A DNA stretch of 64,000 nucleotides. It comes from an uncultured Bacilli bacterium. Its GTDB lineage: Bacteria > Bacillota_I > Bacilli_A > RF39 > UBA660. The position numbers and the translations under genes are program-made. Every line of letters begins with the position of its first letter. Position 1 is the stretch's first letter. The stretch is taken from NCBI GenBank assembly GCA_947629035.1, contig CANRCE010000001.1, forward strand, positions 23,037 through 87,036, given 5' to 3'. Shown one piece after another: positions 5,555 to 58,476 of the stretch. The notes under the pieces are model-generated. The model was not told where the DNA came from and ran no database searches. It saw nothing but the letters and a program-made list of their open reading frames with translations.

Positions 5555-5946
5555 AAATAATCACTCATTTCTATTTTGTATTCATATATATTATCAGTTT
5601 CCTTAACCATATATACAATTTCAATTAAATTATCTTTCTTTATTAAAGATATTGTTTTTATATTAAGCTCTAAATTAACACCATTTTCTTTTAACAAATA
5701 TTGCGTTATTGTATCTTTATTTTCTTTAAAAATCAAAATATTTTTAAACTCTTTGTTTTCTCTTATTAATATAATTTCATCATCATTTAGATGAATTGTA
5801 TTTTTTATATCATCTTCTTTATAAGTAATCTTATTTTTTTCTTTTATAGCAATGGTATCAATATCAAAGCATTCTCTTTCTTCATTATTTTTTAAATATC
5901 CTTTTATCCTTATTTTTATTTTAAAAACCTCCCAACATAATTTCAT
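5551..5946 (-). CDS. DUF1934 (YwiB-like) protein, co-operonic with argS
   Basis: 131 aa, overlaps the argS start by 4 nt. Conserved ywiB-argS gene order in Bacilli/Clostridia. Confidence 0.55.
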   Translation of the reverse strand: MKLCWEVFKIKIRIKGYLKNNEERECFDIDTIAIKEKNKITYKEDDIKNTIHLNDDEIILIRENKEFKNILIFKENKDTITQYLLKENGVNLELNIKTISLIKKDNLIEIVYMVKETDNIYEYKIEMSDYL

Positions 5947-19731: not shown

Positions 19732-21204
19732 TTATTTGTTTGTTACTTTCTTCATTTGTGGGAATAAGACAACATCTCTTACTGAAGCCTGATTAAATAT
19801 AATCATCATAAGTCTATCTATTCCAAATCCCAATCCTGAAATTGGAGGCATTCCTTGTTCCATGGCAAGTAAGAAGTCTTCATCTAATTCCATAGTTTCA
19901 TCATCACCTTGAGCTTTAGCTTTTAATTGATCCTCAAAATTTTGTCTTTGAATAACAGGATCAACTAATTCAGAATAAGCTTTGCATAGTTCTGTTTTAC
20001 AAACAAGAACTTGAAAAACATCGATAATACGATTATCTTTATCATTTCTTCTAGCTAATGGTATTAAAACTGCAGGATAGTTATAGATAATTGTAGGTTC
20101 TATAATTTTCTCTCTTATTAATTTTTTATAACAAAAATCTATAATTTGGCTTAATGATTTATATTCTTCTAAATCAGCATAAGTAAATAGACCTTTTTCA
20201 ACAATTTTTTTCTTTAATTCTTGAGGGTCATCAATACTTAAAAAGTCAAAGCCATATATTTTTTGCATTTCTTCAACATAATTTATTCTTTTCCAATTGT
20301 CTTCACCAAAATCAATTTTATGTCCTTGATATTCAATTGTAGTACTTCCTATTAATTCCATAAGAAGTCCTCTTATAAACTTTTTATAAAACTTTATATT
20401 GTCTTCAAAATTCCAATAAGAAGCATACCACTCAACTTGAGTAAATTCTTGTAAATGTTCTGAATCCATGCCCTCATTTCTAAAACATTTTGCTACTTCA
20501 TATACACGATCAAAACCTCCAGCAATACATTGCTTTAGATAAGTTTCTGGCGCTATTCTTAAATTACAATCAATGTCTAGAGCATTATGATGGGTATAAA
20601 AAGGTCTTGCAGAAGCACCACATACGGCATTTTGTAATATTGGCGTTTCGACTTCTAAAAAACCATTTTCTCCTAAAAATCGATGAATATATGAATATAG
20701 TTTACTTCTTCCTAAAAAGACTTTTCTTGTATCTTCATTCATTATTAAGTCAACGTATCTTTGTCGATATTTCATTTCAACATCAGTTAATCCATGAAAT
20801 TTTTCAGGAAGAGGTCTTAATGCTTTACCTAAAAATTCAAAATTATGGGCTCTTAAAGTTTTTTCTCCAGTTTGTGTAGTAAAAATTTCACCAGTTGCCC
20901 CAATAAAATCACCAGTATCTATTTGTTTTTTGAAAAATTCATAGGCTTCTTCTCCTACTTCATCAATTTTTATCTCAAGTTGCATATCTCCTTCGATATC
21001 TCGAATACGAATAAAGCTTAACTTACCCATTTTTCGCATGAAAACAATTCGACCTGCTAAACTTACATTATCAGTTCCATCAGCAAGTAATTTAGCATCC
21101 TTTAGTGAGTGTGTTTTTTCAAATCTTTCAGGATAAGGATTGCAAAATTGTCTTATTTTATCTATTTTTTCTATCCTTACTAATTCTTGTTCTGCTCTTT
21201 GCAT
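19732..21204 (-). CDS. lysS: Lysyl-tRNA synthetase (class II)
   Basis: 490 aa. N-terminal NPYPERFEKTH LysRS signature, OB-fold anticodon domain, class II motifs including GLGFGIDRLMMI (motif 3). Confidence 0.9.
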   Translation of the reverse strand: MQRAEQELVRIEKIDKIRQFCNPYPERFEKTHSLKDAKLLADGTDNVSLAGRIVFMRKMGKLSFIRIRDIEGDMQLEIKIDEVGEEAYEFFKKQIDTGDFIGATGEIFTTQTGEKTLRAHNFEFLGKALRPLPEKFHGLTDVEMKYRQRYVDLIMNEDTRKVFLGRSKLYSYIHRFLGENGFLEVETPILQNAVCGASARPFYTHHNALDIDCNLRIAPETYLKQCIAGGFDRVYEVAKCFRNEGMDSEHLQEFTQVEWYASYWNFEDNIKFYKKFIRGLLMELIGSTTIEYQGHKIDFGEDNWKRINYVEEMQKIYGFDFLSIDDPQELKKKIVEKGLFTYADLEEYKSLSQIIDFCYKKLIREKIIEPTIIYNYPAVLIPLARRNDKDNRIIDVFQVLVCKTELCKAYSELVDPVIQRQNFEDQLKAKAQGDDETMELDEDFLLAMEQGMPPISGLGFGIDRLMMIIFNQASVRDVVLFPQMKKVTNK

Positions 21205-42890: not shown

Positions 42891-42905
42891 AGGCAAACTA
42901 TGCCT
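42891..42905 (-). terminator. Short terminator hairpin (AGGCA-aacta-TGCCT) overlapping the stop of the M23 gene, with an A-run upstream
   Basis: Inverted repeat seen. It would isolate the spoIIID promoter region. Confidence 0.35.
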
Positions 42906-43554
42906 GTAATTCTTCTGGGGTTTTATTATAACAATTTTCAGGATTTAATATTTTGCCTTGATAATATATTTCAAAATGAAGATGATTTCCTAAATCTTTA
43001 TTAATGTTTGATGTTCCACTTTGACCAATTACTTGTCCTTGAATAATTGTATCATCTACTTTAACAGATACATTTGATAGACTTTGATATACACTAATTA
43101 ATTCATTATTGTGTCTTATTTCTACGATTGTTCCCAAAATATCATCTTCTTTTACATCAATTACTGTTCCATCTAGGATACTAACTACATCAAAATTATC
43201 TTGATAAGCATAGTCTATTCCTGAATTTTGCATATAAGTATTTTCATAATAGATAATTGATTTTTCTTGTTCAGATGCATCTTTTTCATAATCATAGAAA
43301 TTTTTAGCTATATATACTTCATTATTTTGATATGGTCTTATAATGGTTACTGTTGTATTTATTACTGGTAAGTAATCATTTTTTTCAACAATTTCACTAT
43401 CTACATATTCTAGGTTTTCTTCTTTCTTAAAAAGTGAAGTGTTGCTTACTAATCTTTCTATAAAATACATACCTATTACGAATACAATAACACTTACTGC
43501 ATACATCATTGGAACTACAAATGGTTTTAATTTTCTTTTTGTCATTTTTTTCAC
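42898..43554 (-). CDS. Membrane-anchored M23/LytM-domain protein, SpoIIQ-like
   Basis: 218 aa. N-terminal TM; C-terminal LytM motifs (HLHFEIYYQGKILNP). Located between spoIID and spoIIID, exactly as spoIIQ (CD0125) is in Clostridioides difficile. Confidence 0.55.
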   Translation of the reverse strand: MKKMTKRKLKPFVVPMMYAVSVIVFVIGMYFIERLVSNTSLFKKEENLEYVDSEIVEKNDYLPVINTTVTIIRPYQNNEVYIAKNFYDYEKDASEQEKSIIYYENTYMQNSGIDYAYQDNFDVVSILDGTVIDVKEDDILGTIVEIRHNNELISVYQSLSNVSVKVDDTIIQGQVIGQSGTSNINKDLGNHLHFEIYYQGKILNPENCYNKTPEELQA

Positions 43555-43594
43555 CTCTACTTTAAGTATTGGCTAAAATATGATTTTATATACA

Positions 43595-44521
43595 TTAATT
43601 TTTTATTTTTTTTATGGTTGTTCCTGTATAATAATGTTTTAATATTTCATCATAGGTATAACCAGCTTTAGCCATTCCTAAAGCTCCATATTGACTCATT
43701 CCAACACCATGGCCATAACCTTTTGTTTCAATTATAACATTCGAACCTGATTGTATCATTTTAAAATCTGTTGATTTTAATCCTAACTTATTATATACAT
43801 CTGTTCCTTCGAAAAGTTGATCATTTATTTTTAAACTTAATATTCGGTTAGTGTTACTTCTTTTTACTATTTGTACTTTTAAAGTATCTTGATATTTTAA
43901 ATTTAATTTTTGATAAAAATCTTTTAGGGATATAGTTGTTTTTTGGTTAAATGCTTCAGATGTTTCTTCATCCCAAAAGGATTCTACACTTTTTAAATAT
44001 GGTAAGTCTAGATTAAAAACTAATTCAACATTTTCAGTATAGCCATTACTAGTTGAAAAAAACAAGGCATCAATTACTTCATCATTATAGACTAAATATT
44101 CATCAATTGTTTCATTTACAGCTTTTCTTAATTTATTTATATTTTTTACATAATTACTCTGCCATGCTTCTTTTAAATAATCATTATCTAAATATACTTG
44201 ATTCATTACACTATCTACGACATCATAGTCATTATCTTTATTATATTCAATTCTTTTTAAAACATAACTTCTAGCTGCTACTGCTTGAGCTTTTAGTGCT
44301 TCGATTTCAAAATAAACTGGCATTTCTCCTGCTAAAACACCTACAATATATTCTTCTAATGGTATTGTTTCTATTGTGTTTTTATCTAATCTTTTTACTC
44401 TTACGTTTAAATTATTAACATATTTTAATTGAATTTCTTTTGTTTGTACTGTTTTGACAAAGGTTACAATAAAAAAAGGTACTAAAACTATTGTAAAGGT
44501 TAATATTATTATTTTTTTCAT
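43595..44521 (-). CDS. spoIID: Stage II sporulation protein D (SpoIID/LytB family)
   Basis: 308 aa. EEYIVGVLAGEMPVYFEIEALKAQAVAARSY, FFSTSNGYTE, GYGHGVGMSQYGALGMAKAGYTYDEILKHYYTGT, the full SpoIID signature set. Confidence 0.85.
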   Translation of the reverse strand: MKKIIILTFTIVLVPFFIVTFVKTVQTKEIQLKYVNNLNVRVKRLDKNTIETIPLEEYIVGVLAGEMPVYFEIEALKAQAVAARSYVLKRIEYNKDNDYDVVDSVMNQVYLDNDYLKEAWQSNYVKNINKLRKAVNETIDEYLVYNDEVIDALFFSTSNGYTENVELVFNLDLPYLKSVESFWDEETSEAFNQKTTISLKDFYQKLNLKYQDTLKVQIVKRSNTNRILSLKINDQLFEGTDVYNKLGLKSTDFKMIQSGSNVIIETKGYGHGVGMSQYGALGMAKAGYTYDEILKHYYTGTTIKKIKN

Positions 44522-48260: not shown

Positions 48261-48782
48261 TTAAAATATTTTTGATAATGTTTCTTTTATCCAAGATTTA
48301 TATTCTACTTCTTCGTAATTTTCTGCTTCCATAAGACATAATGGAGGAAATAAAACACACCACCAATTATCTCCTTTAGCTTCTCCGATTGATACAACTA
48401 ATGATTCATAATAACCTTCTTCATATGTTACTCCTTTATATATTTTTTTAGGAAAATAATTTTGACCATAATTTAAAGTATAATTTTTATCGTAATTATT
48501 ATTTTTAAAAATATTATTAATATTTTCATCAATGGTTGATAAATTATTTTGTAAGATTAATCTTGCTTCTTGAATTGTTTTAACATCTTTTAATAATTGA
48601 TAAGTATTTTCTTCTAAATAATCTTTTACCATTCTTTTTATTACGATATCTTCTGTATTGTTGCTATTAGGAATTACTCTTAATCTAATTGAAGTTTCTG
48701 GAATTATTATGGTATCAGCTTTTGTTTCATTATATACTAAAAATATTGATAATATTGCTAATATGATAATAATTTTTTTCAA
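48261..48782 (-). CDS. spoIIR: Stage II sporulation protein R
   Basis: 173 aa. IRLRVIPNSNNTEDIVIKRMVKDYL... and C-terminal GEAKGDNWWCVLFPPLCLME, the SpoIIR signature. Confidence 0.8.
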   Translation of the reverse strand: MKKIIIILAILSIFLVYNETKADTIIIPETSIRLRVIPNSNNTEDIVIKRMVKDYLEENTYQLLKDVKTIQEARLILQNNLSTIDENINNIFKNNNYDKNYTLNYGQNYFPKKIYKGVTYEEGYYESLVVSIGEAKGDNWWCVLFPPLCLMEAENYEEVEYKSWIKETLSKIF

Positions 48783-48833: not shown

Positions 48834-50378
48834 TTATTTTTCAATTTTTATAATTATTTGATATTCTTTTTCTAAATCCATTTCATTTATAGTTATCGTT
48901 TTGCCACTATTTTCTATTTTAGATACAACCTCACGAATTGATGATATAGCATCATTTAAGTTATTATTTGACTGACCATTACTGATTGGTTCAACTGGTG
49001 GTTGCAATTCTGGTGACACTACTGGTGTAGGTTCAATATTTATTGCTGATAATGGCTCTTCTTTAGGTGATGGCATTGTTGGTGCTTGTGGCGTGATTGG
49101 ATTTGTAATATCAATTATTGTAGGTTCTTGTGTGTTTGTTGACATGTTTGGCATGCTGTTATTTTGTGCCATTATAGGTGGTGTCATTGTTGGTTCAATA
49201 TTATTAGATTGTGATGAAAAACTTGGAATTGGACTTGGAACTACTGGCTCAACTGGGATATTTGGCAGTACTATTTGAGCATTAGGTATTGGTCCTTGTT
49301 GAGTTGGTGTTTGACTAGCTCCAATTGGTTCAGGCATCACAGGCATTTGAATTGTATTTACATTTGGTTGGGGTGTTGACTGTGGCATAGGATTTTGTAA
49401 TGAAGCTTCATTATTTTGATTCATTCCTGGTGCTTGTGGTACTGTAAAATTCATATTTACTGTTTCATTTTCAAGTGGCTTATTAAAATTTGAAGCCTCA
49501 CTTGGTTGTGCTACTGGTTGATTTACCATATTATTTTGTTCTTGATTCATATCTATTATCTCCTCTTTTCTATCTTCAATTAAAGGTTCAACATCATTAA
49601 AGACATTTGAATTTGTATCATATATATTTAAATCATTTAAAGCAAATTTTACGTTATTATTTATTGAATTATTAGTTAATGAAATAGCTTCATTTAAATC
49701 ATTTAGATTAACTGTATTATTATTTGTTCCTTCAAGTGGATCTATTATTGTTTCTTGATTACTATCTTGATTTTGTTTTAACAAAGACTTAATATAGTCT
49801 TCAGTTGCTTTTACATTTAATTTTTGAGATATTATTTTATTTAATACTTCTTTTTGTTTATTTTCATCAGATAGTTGCAATAAGCTTCTTGCATGTCGTT
49901 CTGATATTTCATTATTCATTAGTGAATCCTGAATTTCTTTAGGTAATTTTAATAATCTTAATTTGTTGGCAATACTACTTTGTGATTTGCCTATTTTTTG
50001 TGATAAATCTTCCTGTTTTAAATTTCCTAAATTCATTAAATTTTGATATGCCCTAGCTTCTTCGATAGCATTTAAATCTTTTCGTTCGAGATTTTCTATT
50101 AATGCTAATGAAGCACTAGTAATATCATCTACTTCATTTACTATTACTGGTACTTCTTTTAATCCTGCAATAATAGCAGCTTTATATCTTCTTTCTCCTG
50201 CAATGATTTCATATTTATCATTAATTTTTCTAACGGCTAGTGGTTGAATTATTCCATAATTTTTTATCGAAGTAGCTAATTCATTTAATTCTTCTTCATT
50301 AAATATCATCCTTGGTTGATATCTATTTGGTATTATGTTTTCAATTTTTATATATTCAATTTGCTTTGCCGTATTCAT
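48834..50378 (-). CDS. ParB/Noc-like DNA-binding protein with long P/Q/N-rich low-complexity C-terminal extension
   Basis: 514 aa. ParB N-domain (IIPNRYQPRMIFNEEELNEL..SIKNYGIIQPLAVRK...YEIIAGERRYKAA) and HTH (LSQKIGKSQSSIANKLRLLKLP), then ~250 aa of P/Q/N/T-rich sequence and a ~50-aa C-terminal segment. No parA/soj gene in the window. Confidence 0.75.
   Translation of the reverse strand: MNTAKQIEYIKIENIIPNRYQPRMIFNEEELNELATSIKNYGIIQPLAVRKINDKYEIIAGERRYKAAIIAGLKEVPVIVNEVDDITSASLALIENLERKDLNAIEEARAYQNLMNLGNLKQEDLSQKIGKSQSSIANKLRLLKLPKEIQDSLMNNEISERHARSLLQLSDENKQKEVLNKIISQKLNVKATEDYIKSLLKQNQDSNQETIIDPLEGTNNNTVNLNDLNEAISLTNNSINNNVKFALNDLNIYDTNSNVFNDVEPLIEDRKEEIIDMNQEQNNMVNQPVAQPSEASNFNKPLENETVNMNFTVPQAPGMNQNNEASLQNPMPQSTPQPNVNTIQMPVMPEPIGASQTPTQQGPIPNAQIVLPNIPVEPVVPSPIPSFSSQSNNIEPTMTPPIMAQNNSMPNMSTNTQEPTIIDITNPITPQAPTMPSPKEEPLSAINIEPTPVVSPELQPPVEPISNGQSNNNLNDAISSIREVVSKIENSGKTITINEMDLEKEYQIIIKIEK
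48986..49736 (-). repeat. Low-complexity (P/Q/N/T-rich) coding region within the ParB-like gene
   Basis: Compositionally biased translation (...PQAPGMNQNNEASLQNPMPQSTPQPNVNTIQMPVMPEP...). Confidence 0.6.
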
Positions 50379-50467
50379 ACTATATATCCCTTCCTATTCA
50401 TCTTATTATAATAATACAATAAAATTAAAACTTTTACAAGAAATTTTAATTATTTTCTGTAAAAGTT

Positions 50468-51169
50468 TTATAATTCTCTCTTTTTTATTTCATTATAGCT
50501 TCTTGGATAGGTTAAAGATGTTGGTTTTAATTTTTTATAACTTATTATTGTTCGAAGACTATTTTCTATAGGAAGCTTAAATATTTCTTTTTTTTCTTCA
50601 ATAATATTTAATTTTTGATAATAATTATCTATATTTTTAATTTCATTATCTATATTTCCTTTTAAACAGATAAAATTACCATTTACTTTTACTAGAGGTA
50701 TTCCATATTCAAGTAAATGTTTTAAAGGAGCTACTGCTCTAGATATGACAATATCAAATATTTCTCTTTTGGTTTTAGCATAATTTTCTATTCTATCATT
50801 TATTATTTTTACATCATTTAGTTTTAATGTTTGAGTTACTAATTGTAGAAAATTACATTTTTTTAGGGTAGCATCTATTAATGTTAATTTTATATTGGGA
50901 AAGACTATTTTTAAAACTAATCCTGGAAATCCAGCTCCTGTTCCTATATCGCATATACTTTGACTTTCTAGATTTATTATTTTAGTTGTTGTTATACTAT
51001 CATAAAAATGTTTTAAATATACTTCTTTTTCTTCAGTTATGGCTGTTAAGTTATATTTTTTATTTTCTTCTTTTAATAGATTGTAATAGATATCTAAATT
51101 TTCTAATTGTTCTTTTGTTAAAACTATTCCTAGTTTTTTTAATTCTTGAATAAATTCATCTTTACTCAT
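50468..51169 (-). CDS. rsmG: 16S rRNA (guanine527-N7)-methyltransferase
   Basis: 233 aa. GidB family SAM motif (ICDIGTGAGFPGLVLKIVFP). Follows mnmG. Confidence 0.85.
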   Translation of the reverse strand: MSKDEFIQELKKLGIVLTKEQLENLDIYYNLLKEENKKYNLTAITEEKEVYLKHFYDSITTTKIINLESQSICDIGTGAGFPGLVLKIVFPNIKLTLIDATLKKCNFLQLVTQTLKLNDVKIINDRIENYAKTKREIFDIVISRAVAPLKHLLEYGIPLVKVNGNFICLKGNIDNEIKNIDNYYQKLNIIEEKKEIFKLPIENSLRTIISYKKLKPTSLTYPRSYNEIKKREL

Positions 51170-54965: not shown

Positions 54966-56726
54966 ATGTTCAAAGAAATACTTGCAATTAGTAAAAATTT
55001 TGCTTTAGTTAAAATTGAGGGTCAGATTAATGATGATCTTTTGAATTATAATGTTGTATTTGAAGAAGATAATAAAAAAATATTAGGAGAAATTGAAGAG
55101 ATTAATGATGGACAAGCTCGTATTACGTTTTTAGGAGAATTTCATGATGGAAAATATTATGATGGTATTATTCGAAAACCTAGCTTAAATGCCAAAATTA
55201 GAATTATTAACGAAGATGAACTTAAAGAATTAGTAGGAGCTAATGATAATCGAAGTATGATTTTAGGATTATCACCATTATATAATGATTTTCCTATTCA
55301 TATAAATATTAATGAAATGTTTAGTAATCATAGTGCTATTTTTGGTAACACTGGTAGTGGTAAAACTTACGGTGTAGCACGTTTTGTTCAAAATTTATTT
55401 CATATTGATGATAAAATTCCTTTTAATAGCAATATATTTATATTCAATAATACAGATGAATATGACAATGCTTTTAATAATTTAAATACGATTAATCCTA
55501 ATTTTAATTATAAAATCTTTACTACTAATACTAATCAAACAACGATACCAATTATAAAGTTACCTCTATGGCTTTTTAGTGTTGATGATTTTGCTAATTT
55601 ATTAGATGTAACTGAATATTCTCAAATTATGGTTATTGAAAAAACATTAAGTTATGTATCTTTATTTGCAAGGAATGATGAAGAGTCTCATCGTTATAAA
55701 AATCATTTAATTGCTAAAGCAATAATTAATGTTATGTATACTAATCAAACATCTGCTAGAATTCGTGACCAAATATTTTCAATTTTAACTGATTGTCATA
55801 CACCAGAACTTAATTTAGATGTTGAAGTTCCAGGTGTTGGATATACTAGAGAATTTCGTAAATGTTTTGATATAGATAGTCAAGGAGAATTTGTTGAAAG
55901 AATACTTATAACTGGCTATATAGCTCAATTTGTGGATAATAATACTAAATGGAATGAAGATTATGTACCTTGTTATTTTACAATGGATGATTTAGAAGTT
56001 GCTATGAATTTTGCTTTAATTTCTGAAGGACTTTTGTTAAATGAAAAGACTTCTTCAGAAGCGACTGCTTTAAAAGTTAAACTTCATACATTAAATAATA
56101 GTTCTAGTCGAAAGTTTTTTGAATATGATCGATTTATTAATATAAATGAATTTATTTCTGATTTAATATTAATAAATGGTAATAAAAGAGCACAGATTAT
56201 TAATTTTGTACTAGAAGATATCGATGATAGATTTGCTAAAAATTTAGTAAAAATATATTCTAGAATACTTTTTAAATTTTCTAAATATTTACCAGATCGA
56301 GGAGCTATGCCTATTCACATTATGTTAGAAGAAGCCCACAGATATGTTCAAAAAGATAATGATCTAAATATTTTAGGATATAATATTTTTGAAAGAATAG
56401 CTAAAGAAGGTAGAAAATTTGGACTGGTATTAGATTTAATTACTCAAAGACCTACTGAATTATCAGAAACTGTTATATCTCAATGTAGTAATTTTTTGAT
56501 TTTTAAAATAAATCATCCAACTGATTTAGAATATATAAGAAAAATGGTTCCTAATATAAGTAATGATGTTATAGAAAAACAAAAATCTCTTCAATCTGGT
56601 ACATGTGTAGCTTTTGGAAAAATGATGAAAATCCCTATGATTGTTAAAATGCAGCTTCCTGATCCTGAACCTCATAGTTCAAATGCTTCAATCTACGATA
56701 AGTGGATGATTGAGTGGAAAAAATAA
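54966..56726 (+). CDS. HerA/FtsK-superfamily ATPase (DUF87 'HerA-like helicase' domain), stand-alone
   Basis: 586 aa. N-terminal HAS-barrel-like segment (ILGEIEEINDGQARITFLGEF). Walker A GNTGSGKTYGV. Walker B/DEAH-like IHIMLEEAHRYV. Conserved LITQRPTELSETVISQCSNFLIFKINHP block typical of HerA-type ATPases. No TM segments. Confidence 0.65.
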   Translation: MFKEILAISKNFALVKIEGQINDDLLNYNVVFEEDNKKILGEIEEINDGQARITFLGEFHDGKYYDGIIRKPSLNAKIRIINEDELKELVGANDNRSMILGLSPLYNDFPIHININEMFSNHSAIFGNTGSGKTYGVARFVQNLFHIDDKIPFNSNIFIFNNTDEYDNAFNNLNTINPNFNYKIFTTNTNQTTIPIIKLPLWLFSVDDFANLLDVTEYSQIMVIEKTLSYVSLFARNDEESHRYKNHLIAKAIINVMYTNQTSARIRDQIFSILTDCHTPELNLDVEVPGVGYTREFRKCFDIDSQGEFVERILITGYIAQFVDNNTKWNEDYVPCYFTMDDLEVAMNFALISEGLLLNEKTSSEATALKVKLHTLNNSSSRKFFEYDRFININEFISDLILINGNKRAQIINFVLEDIDDRFAKNLVKIYSRILFKFSKYLPDRGAMPIHIMLEEAHRYVQKDNDLNILGYNIFERIAKEGRKFGLVLDLITQRPTELSETVISQCSNFLIFKINHPTDLEYIRKMVPNISNDVIEKQKSLQSGTCVAFGKMMKIPMIVKMQLPDPEPHSSNASIYDKWMIEWKK

Positions 56727-56784: not shown

Positions 56785-56895
56785 TGTGGATAAAATTTGT
56801 CAACTATGTGGATTAAAAATTTTATTATAAATTTGTGGAAAACAAAAAAAATCCTTTTAAAATAATAACTTTTATTGTTGAAAACTTGTTGATAA
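56785..56895. promoter_or_regulatory. DnaA-box cluster upstream of dnaA (oriC / dnaA promoter region)
   Basis: TGTGGATAA (56785-56793) is the perfect reverse complement of TTATCCACA. TGTGGATTA (56807-56815), TGTGGAAAA (56834-56842) and TGTTGATAA (56887-56895) each carry one mismatch. All four are in the same orientation. Confidence 0.75.
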
Positions 56896-58381: not shown

Positions 58382-58476
58382 TTATACACAAGTAATTGTG
58401 AAAAAAAAATCTTTATTTTATAAGAATTTATTTTACTTTTCCACAGTATGAACAGTGTAATAATAATAAATATTAA
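58382..58476. promoter_or_regulatory. dnaA-dnaN intergenic origin segment: DnaA boxes plus AT-rich unwinding element
   Basis: TTATACACA (58382-58390) and TTTTCCACA (58437-58445) are one-mismatch DnaA boxes. They are followed by the AT-run AATAATAATAAATATTAAAAG immediately before dnaN. Confidence 0.6.

Follow-up and report, generated by a model that had tools for sequence, protein, structure and literature searches.

A gene of the ParB family lies in the ancestral rsmG-noc position, directly downstream of rsmG and ~6.5 kb from oriC, in a 64-kb stretch of DNA from an uncultured member of the Bacilli (contig CANRCE010000001.1; this whole stretch is hereafter called the window). Judged by its sequence, through profile and PDB matches, the DNA-recognition residues QKKR, the C-terminal domain and synteny, the 514-residue protein that it encodes is a Noc-clade paralog and not a ParB/Spo0J partition protein. 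In current models, Noc tethers DNA carrying Noc-binding sites (NBS) to the membrane through an N-terminal amphipathic helix that is released by cytidine triphosphate (CTP), yet in the large natural clade to which the window protein belongs, the head that reads NBS, the CTP pocket and the dimerisation domain are retained but the membrane helix is not; what the clade has instead is an acidic spacer, 84-427 residues long at the species level and longer in the largest clusters. The interpretation favoured here, at a probability of about 0.72, is that the protein is the form of Noc proper to this clade, a paralog that would be loaded at NBS as a CTP-dependent clamp, with long acidic tethers and with its effector contact placed in the linker.

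A sequence-only reading of this DNA had described the protein as "ParB/Noc-like", and it is the Noc half of that description that has held, the ParB half having been given up. The best NCBIfam match is TIGR04285 (nucleoid_noc; 300.6 bits), obtained in two stretches separated by an insertion. Taken by themselves, the final 42 residues align with positions 214-255 of this 255-position model (E = 2.8e-4), so that the C-terminus, which the same reading had proposed to compare with the ParB dimerisation domain, matches a domain of the dimerisation type, of Noc rather than ParB kind. A phmmer search against the PDB ranks Noc (7ng0/7nfu, 207 bits; 7ol9, 191 bits) above Spo0J (6sdk, 166 bits); reciprocally, the Spo0J of the related locus L011 scores 215 bits against 6sdk and 157 bits against Noc. 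The window protein is 62% identical to the long protein of L011 and 40% identical to its Spo0J. Predicted structure agrees: Foldseek returns apo-Noc (7nfu) as the best match of the whole fold, with a TM score of 0.81-0.83 and a root-mean-square deviation of 2.2-2.3 Å, and the DNA-binding domain matches that of Noc in complex with NBS (6y93) with a TM score of 0.91-0.93 and a deviation of 1.2-1.5 Å.

Four residues switch a ParB from parS to NBS, namely Q158, K164, K169 and R186 in B. subtilis Noc, the corresponding residues of Caulobacter ParB being R, T, A, and G (Jalal 2020, PMC7383237). The window protein carries the full NBS-specificity set QKKR, at the positions given in Table 1, while the wider family mostly has Q-K-x-R. 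When aligned to 7ol9, its specificity segment reads GKSQSSIANKLRLLKLP...SERHAR against GKGQSTIANKLRLLKLP...TERHAR in B. subtilis Noc, and the parS-specific residues (R173 and G201 in Caulobacter numbering) are replaced by Q and R; the Spo0J of a related genome reads GKSRSH...SMGHAR over the same segment. The N-terminal domain is also intact, its three boxes being PNRYQPR, GERRYKA and ENLERKDL, with E in ENLERK standing where Q is usual among members. The CTP-pocket residues Q20, G60, E61, R62, R63 and N95 are all present, and family alignments find them invariant or nearly so.

The ParA-binding motif of ParB proteins, defined as (L|F|I)G[KR]G(L|F|I) (PMC12704722), is absent from the window protein and from all family proteins (0/81). 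It is present in each of the five Spo0J proteins extracted from related loci, all of one class (class B, below), which are 295-297 aa long and carry KKALGKGLEELF, with the LGKGL motif. Neither Soj/ParA nor a second ParB was detected in the 64-kb window by tblastn, the queries being B. subtilis Soj and two Soj proteins from related genomes, with best E values of 3.8 and 7.6. The lack of soj that had been noticed in the window is thus real, but it is no anomaly: for a protein of the Noc clade no ParA partner is expected.

How widespread is this architecture? A protein search led to a family of proteins of 322-623 aa in metagenome-assembled genomes from the gut, named only "ParB/RepB/Spo0J family partition protein", and a scan of species-representative genomes gave 80 related loci, with up to 10 kb on each side of the gene and less on short contigs. 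Every one of these lies downstream of mnmG-rsmG where its contig extends that far. In eight genomes (class A) the canonical Firmicute order rsmG-noc(long)-soj-spo0J is kept. Six others (class B, including the complete chromosome CP091726.1), which are the closest relatives of the window by MnmG score, have the order of the window, rsmG-noc-spoIIR-mntP-murA, with soj-spo0J ~8 kb away and divergent from rnpA-yidC-jag. The remaining, window-like loci (class C) hold no soj or second parB within the 10 kb or less on each side. In 14 related genomes, therefore, the long Noc-like protein coexists with an ordinary soj-spo0J pair. Since the rnpA-yidC-jag block, which travels with soj-spo0J in class B, is also missing from the window, the window says little about the presence of ParAB in its genome.

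At the species level (n = 81) the proteins range from 329 to 672 aa (median 421) and their linkers from 84 to 427 aa (median 176). Also examined were the 150 clusters (50% identity) that scored highest in a library of 1.84 billion representatives: all outscore canonical Noc, and most are of 336-821 aa, the few shorter ones looking like fragments. The long linker is thus the rule among these uncultured, AT-rich, spore-forming gut Bacilli, a large clade that counts 81 species-level genomes and 150 clusters or more (329-821 aa), and the sequence-only reading, which had called such variants uncommon, is contradicted by all 81 genomes and nearly all of the best 150 clusters. The same survey disposes of a more mundane explanation for the unusual length, namely that a frameshift or misjoin in sequencing or assembly fused a ParB/Noc of ~280 aa to downstream sequence. 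Length is all that would suggest such an artefact, whose probability is negligible: the whole layout recurs in 80 independently assembled species-level genomes and more than 150 clusters, the C-terminal 45 aa are the Noc C-terminal domain itself, and the gene, one of 57 open reading frames (ORFs) in the window, has no internal stop and no notable alternative-frame ORF. Its product has an identical counterpart already recorded at NCBI, on a contig of 90,147 bp.

The sites that such a protein would read were found in the relatives. The 16-bp NBS consensus, TATTTCCCGGGAAATA, occurs 13 times without a mismatch in 1.35 Mb of DNA from the related loci, where 0.0003 occurrences would be expected. CCCGGG is found there 20 times, 14 of them inside NBS sites; parS is not found in this DNA with fewer than two mismatches. 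Perfect NBS stand at the rsmG/noc junction (L001 9833, L002 4389) and recur in the intergenic DNA upstream of mnmG and upstream of mnmE (L023 7313, L051 7324; L030, L051, L062, L069, and L079 at ~5860-5945). From these perfect sites it follows that the lineage uses a canonical Noc-NBS system with the long protein as its Noc. Sites that recur in this way resemble the case of ParB genes that carry their own parS. In L001, two parS-like sites (AGTTCCACGTGAAACA, at 20658-20673 and 20713-20728) lie ~9 kb downstream of the noc-like gene, and as the examined DNA of this locus has no soj or spo0J, they hint that this relative has its ParB elsewhere.

The public name of the relatives, the ParB N-domain and helix-turn-helix of the window protein, and the fact that it is the sole ParB-family product encoded in the 64 kb around oriC would also fit a chromosomal ParB/Spo0J, its ParA lost or lying just outside the window, which would bind parS near oriC, load SMC, serve segregation and tune a condensate through its intrinsically disordered region. 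This is nonetheless very improbable. QKKR takes the place of the R...G of parS binders, the LG[KR]GL motif for ParA binding is lacking, and Noc outscores Spo0J by both sequence and fold, in agreement with the reciprocal test. Moreover, the window holds no parS within three mismatches, and a true Soj-Spo0J pair stands beside the long protein in the 14 related genomes described above.

The insertion that makes the protein so long is a disordered linker between two folded regions, as had been noticed at first sight. With a family alignment of 68 sequences as input, AlphaFold2 gave a predicted local distance difference test score (pLDDT) of 80-96 for residues 4-205 and of 86-93 for residues 470-511, which are predicted to form one helix and two strands, while residues 208-468 stay below 50. 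Compared with the other 56 ORFs of the window, the linker is rich in Pro (15.1% against 2.4%), Gln (7.9% against 2.4%) and Asn (16.2% against 7.7%) and poor in Lys (1.5% against 9.9%), and Pro peaks at 24 per 100 aa, against 8 at most anywhere else in the window ORFs. Its first third is N/D/E-rich and holds conserved islands; its last two thirds are 20% Pro. Isolated, it has no match in Pfam or NCBIfam. The sequence-only reading had thought of a "prion-like" segment prone to condensation, a view that is hard to reconcile with a net charge of -24, 20% Pro across residues 290-470 and next to no Arg, Tyr or Phe.

Could such a linker be a neutral low-complexity expansion, born of mutational bias and slippage in an AT-rich genome, within a plain or decaying Noc devoid of its membrane helix? 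An Asn-rich first third is what 25% GC would lead one to expect (other proteins have 7.7% Asn), length varies some five-fold among species, tandem-repeat linkers occur in L020 and L076, and most of the linker is unalignable. Neutrality is all the same quite unlikely. The Pro-rich segment, which is the larger part, is encoded at 36-39% GC in a genome with a background of 25%, and so goes counter to the mutational bias. A net negative charge is common to all 81 linkers (-0.05 to -0.23 per residue), no reversion to a short linker is seen in the clade, and short motifs keep a fixed order within otherwise divergent linkers. Constraint on the flanking domains is strong: 69 columns of alignment A1 are invariant, among them E498, D500 and Y505 of the C-terminal domain. 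The linker is thus taken to be under selection because of its universal presence, its acidity, its Pro content against GC bias and the survival of its motifs. The linker DNA of the window contains no meaningful tandem repeat. A de novo scan of the window for GC-cored palindromes gave one perfect 16-mer, TAATGAAGCTTCATTA, which lies in the linker-coding part (49398-49413) and is unrelated to NBS or parS; ~0.3 would be expected by chance.

The conserved elements of the linker are short. Islands A (TVNLNDLN) and B (VKFALNDLNIYDTNSNVFNDVEPLIEDRKEE) recur in fixed order and are well kept in the closest subclade of the window, as seen in alignment A1, and the stretch that they span has the highest hydrophobic moment of the linker. 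The most widespread motif, called FF-LEDE here, has the consensus NKFF[NP]xLEDExxNM and usually begins its match about 50-100 residues along the linker, though farther on in some members. A hidden Markov model (HMM) built from 24 instances matches 31 of the 81 species representatives and 34 of 141 further representatives at 50% identity. The motif persists where the remaining linker is unalignable, and it is confined to the Noc-like proteins, no other ORF of the loci having it. A strong FF-LEDE occurs in none of the 14 loci that have soj-spo0J nearby; the variant in class A proteins, KF[IV]N[FY]GEIDDD, is weaker. In L076 (10001-11884) the linker repeats a 19-aa unit of the type EPVMPEFNFDVPATETPSV some twelve times with little variation, every unit having an F-N-F core that recalls FF-LEDE, and in L020 (9995-11800) it is made of repeats of PEVPQAQEIPSTPAEPIM; these repeat linkers suggest the multivalent display of a short aromatic motif.

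What, then, weighs against a clade-specific Noc clamp? The first ~15 residues of Noc are "extremely" conserved and were predicted to fold into an amphipathic helix in all Nocs examined, and deletion of ten N-terminal residues abolished both membrane association and function, which a foreign amphipathic helix restored (Adams 2015, PMC4331003). CTP switches this N-terminal helix on (Jalal 2021, PMC8429893). The window protein does not have this membrane-targeting helix. Only 16 residues stand ahead of its PNRYQPR box, its residue 5 aligns with residue 26 of Geobacillus Noc and its residue 6 with residue 29 of B. subtilis Noc, and it starts at the equivalent of residue 22-24 of the crystallised Nocs; an in-frame TAG close upstream of the ATG (Table 1) makes an N-terminal extension impossible. 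Throughout the clade about 14-18 residues precede the PNRFQPR box, bar a few artefacts of upstream start codons. The helix is absent from 81 of 81 species representatives and from the best 150 clusters, where the match begins within the first ten residues in nearly all cases (three exceptions begin at residues 14-38). By descent and by its DNA-reading head the clade is thus a "headless" Noc, which lacks the membrane anchor of a functional Noc. Since the helix is needed in B. subtilis and is absent here, nucleoid occlusion by the known mechanism is unsupported, and the "membrane tether with a spacer" of the sequence-only reading falls in the form in which it was put, this helix being the sole known Noc tether. 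In the literature no Noc was found that is described as lacking the membrane helix or as having a long disordered linker; in a 2025 survey of the ParB-CTPase fold, Noc is taken to keep the canonical architecture.

On the same side of the balance, the TIGR04285 score falls just below the curated Noc cut-off of 315, which is why the relatives are recorded as "ParB/RepB/Spo0J family". Neither kind of site that it had been proposed to seek around oriC turned up in the window: there is no NBS 16-mer within four mismatches (parS having been sought as stated above) and no CCCGGG at all, and the positions equivalent to the recurrent sites (the rsmG/noc junction, upstream of mnmG and of mnmE) have no such site. 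Zero NBS in 64 kb is compatible with chance, since the relatives hold roughly one site per 100 kb. Within the linker, the FF-LEDE copy of the window protein is degenerate (NFNKPLENETVNMNF, residues 296-313; 13.3 bits, independent E = 2.5e-4) and has lost the FF pair. Neither for the window protein nor for P0106, a relative whose motif is strong, did AlphaFold2 give a confident structure of the linker motifs or dock them on the folded domains. Finally, the likeness of FF-LEDE to the N-terminus of B. subtilis Noc (SRFFGLGEKE/FSRFFGLG) is not significant, the HMM score being negative.

These last points bear equally on the idea that FF-LEDE is a relocated membrane-targeting sequence, the protein being a classical CTP-switched tether between DNA and membrane with its anchor on a long internal leash. 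The pattern [SN]-[RK]-F-F-x-hydrophobic-x-E-x-E does recall SRFFGLGEKE of B. subtilis Noc, the helical hydrophobic moments are similar (0.43 for the motif, 0.42 for the Noc anchor), a heterologous amphipathic helix can stand in for the Noc N-terminus (Adams 2015, PMC4331003), and in P0106 a short helix of low confidence (pLDDT ~50) is predicted at the motif. In addition to its statistical insignificance and to the lack of any such helix in the prediction for the window protein, the motif is flanked by acidic residues, often with Pro, and occurs in about 25-40% of the clade, with no FF pair in the window. A relocated anchor is accordingly judged unlikely.

Under the favoured interpretation of a clade-specific Noc, the steps would be as follows. 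By analogy with known Noc and ParB behaviour, the protein would dimerise through its C-terminal domain, load at NBS, bind CTP, close its N-domain gate and slide as a clamp; an NBS-loaded clamp of this sort would have no need for ParA. Two tethers of ~265 residues per dimer would join the DNA-binding body to the dimerisation domain. As their anatomy suggests, they are probably long flexible spacers, which would give the compartment between the DNA-binding and C-terminal domains far more room and slack than known clamps have; their acidity and Pro content should keep them extended, make them repel both DNA and one another, and let them resist both non-specific DNA contact and self-association. 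In a protein devoid of the N-terminal anchor, the leading candidates for the contact behind its cellular effect are the conserved linker peptides: islands A and B and FF-LEDE may be effector contacts, with the membrane or with a division or replication protein, that take the place of the missing N-terminal helix. A bolder version, put forward tentatively and held to be somewhat unlikely, is that the clade has rebuilt nucleoid occlusion, with no N-terminal switch and with tether motifs that re-create membrane binding internally or recruit a division or replication protein.

The features of the gene and of its product are collected in Table 1.

Table 1. Positions, in window coordinates, of the noc-like gene, its start signals and the segments of its product.
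Feature	Position	Strand	Basis or remark
noc-like gene, complete (514 codons + TAA stop, ATG start)	48834..50378	(-)	ORF listing
Ribosome-binding site GGAAGGG	50388..50394	(-)	9 nt before the ATG; read from sequence
In-frame TAG	50394-50396	(-)	18 nt 5' of the ATG, overlaps GGAAGGG; read from sequence
ParB/Srx-type N-terminal CTP-binding domain, residues 6-97	50088..50363	(-)	Pfam ParB_N, E = 2.6e-32
Helix-turn-helix DNA-binding domain, residues 100-200	49779..50081	(-)	Pfam HTH_ParB, E = 1.5e-35
Recognition helix and neighbours, residues 129-161, with Q132/K138/K143/R160 (QKKR)	49896..49994	(-)	alignment to B. subtilis Noc
Disordered linker, residues 206-469 (net charge -24)	48972..49763	(-)	AlphaFold2 pLDDT, composition, GC profile
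Linker islands A and B, residues 222-270	49569..49715	(-)	alignment A1; TVNLNDLN (A) and VKFALNDLNIYDTNSNVFNDVEPLIEDRKEE (B)
Degenerate FF-LEDE motif, residues 296-313, SNFNKPLENETVNMNFTV	49440..49493	(-)	motif HMM
Noc-type C-terminal (dimerisation) domain, residues 470-514, one helix + beta-hairpin	48837..48971	(-)	TIGR04285 match, AlphaFold2

The ORF at exactly these coordinates, and its Pfam domains, bear out the initial description of a 514-aa ParB-family gene with an N-domain and a helix-turn-helix, with rsmG immediately upstream. Upstream of noc there is a promoter-like TTGTAA-17-TATTAT (50439-50411); promoter-like matches in this region are no commoner than in shuffled sequence. The rsmG stop codon is overlapped by an AT-rich inverted repeat of 12 bp, AAAACTTTTACA...TGTAAAAGTTTT; this repeat and the promoter-like sequence both fall within 50411-50469. 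The 51 bp that separate noc from spoIIR contain no terminator-like site.

Farther out, the DnaA-box clusters of oriC lie at 56785-56895 and 58382-58445. Beside them, between mnmE and dnaA, a gene for a HerA/DUF87-type ATPase of 586 aa (54966-56726, + strand) stands where the usual rpmH-rnpA-yidC-jag block is missing. This ATPase weakly resembles the anti-phage-associated HerA (151 bits against a cut-off of 850), and the herA-dnaA adjacency is also found in L005, L015, and L042. On the other side, spoIIQ-like and spoIID genes (42898-44521) and spoIIR (48261-48782) flank the noc region; with such sporulation genes at hand, this organism of 25% GC is probably an endospore former. A conserved partner gene next to noc was sought in the relatives, and no candidate emerged. 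The commonest downstream gene there codes for a class-A penicillin-binding-protein-like product of ~640-670 aa; it is convergent and, in about half of the 80 loci (L002-L005, L007, L022, L030, and L037 among them), either follows noc directly or stands one gene farther on. It is absent from the window, where spoIIR-mntP-murA take its position.

The window gene itself is typical of its lineage, and it is the lineage-wide architecture that calls into question whether the Noc membrane switch is as universal as has been assumed. The clade thereby offers a natural experiment on whether Noc can do without membrane tethering, have it relocated or have protein contacts in its stead, and it could also show what the length of the linker between the DNA-binding and C-terminal domains does to a ParB-type clamp. 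Were the clade to have rebuilt occlusion, NBS-bound CTP-gated clamps would be coupled to cell division in a mechanistically distinct way. More practically, the annotation of these proteins as partition proteins, just under the NCBI cut-off for Noc, would mislead a census of ParABS in gut Bacilli.

Among known systems, the nearest is Noc itself (B. subtilis, Geobacillus thermoleovorans, and Staphylococcus aureus; TIGR04285; 7NFU, 7NG0, 7OL9, and 6Y93). The window protein shares with it the types of N-domain, QKKR helix-turn-helix and C-terminal domain, with 48-52% identity over the folded body and TM scores of 0.81-0.93, as well as the site directly downstream of rsmG, the lack of a ParA-binding motif and the canonical NBS in related genomes. 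It differs in being without about 25 N-terminal residues, which bear the amphipathic helix and helix alpha2, in scoring under the curated cut-off and in having no soj-spo0J after the gene in the window. The connector between the DNA-binding and C-terminal domains is ~15-20 aa long in B. subtilis Noc, whereas here it is a disordered, acidic region of 265 aa, rich in Pro, Asn and Gln and carrying short motifs. ParB/Spo0J (TIGR00180; 6SDK, 1VZ0, and 6T1F) has the same fold and domain order, and presumably the same CTP-gated clamp chemistry and C-terminal dimerisation, but the window protein has no LG[KR]GL ParA-activating peptide, has residues of NBS type rather than parS type, and has neither an adjacent parA nor a parS in the window, the true Spo0J of the lineage being a separate protein of 295-297 aa. 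With the amphipathic membrane-targeting sequences of Firmicutes, found at the N-terminus of Noc and at the C-terminus of MinD, the family motif shares, in the case of Noc, a basic residue followed by FF and then by a hydrophobic residue, with a comparable hydrophobic moment; unlike these anchors, FF-LEDE is internal, is followed by an acidic run, often with Pro, and is degenerate in the window protein. Finally, an architectural analogy is provided by the C-terminal linker and C-terminal peptide of FtsZ, where a disordered spacer of hypervariable length and constrained composition likewise goes with a short conserved contact peptide. The two proteins are unrelated, and in the window protein the spacer is internal, lying between two folded domains.

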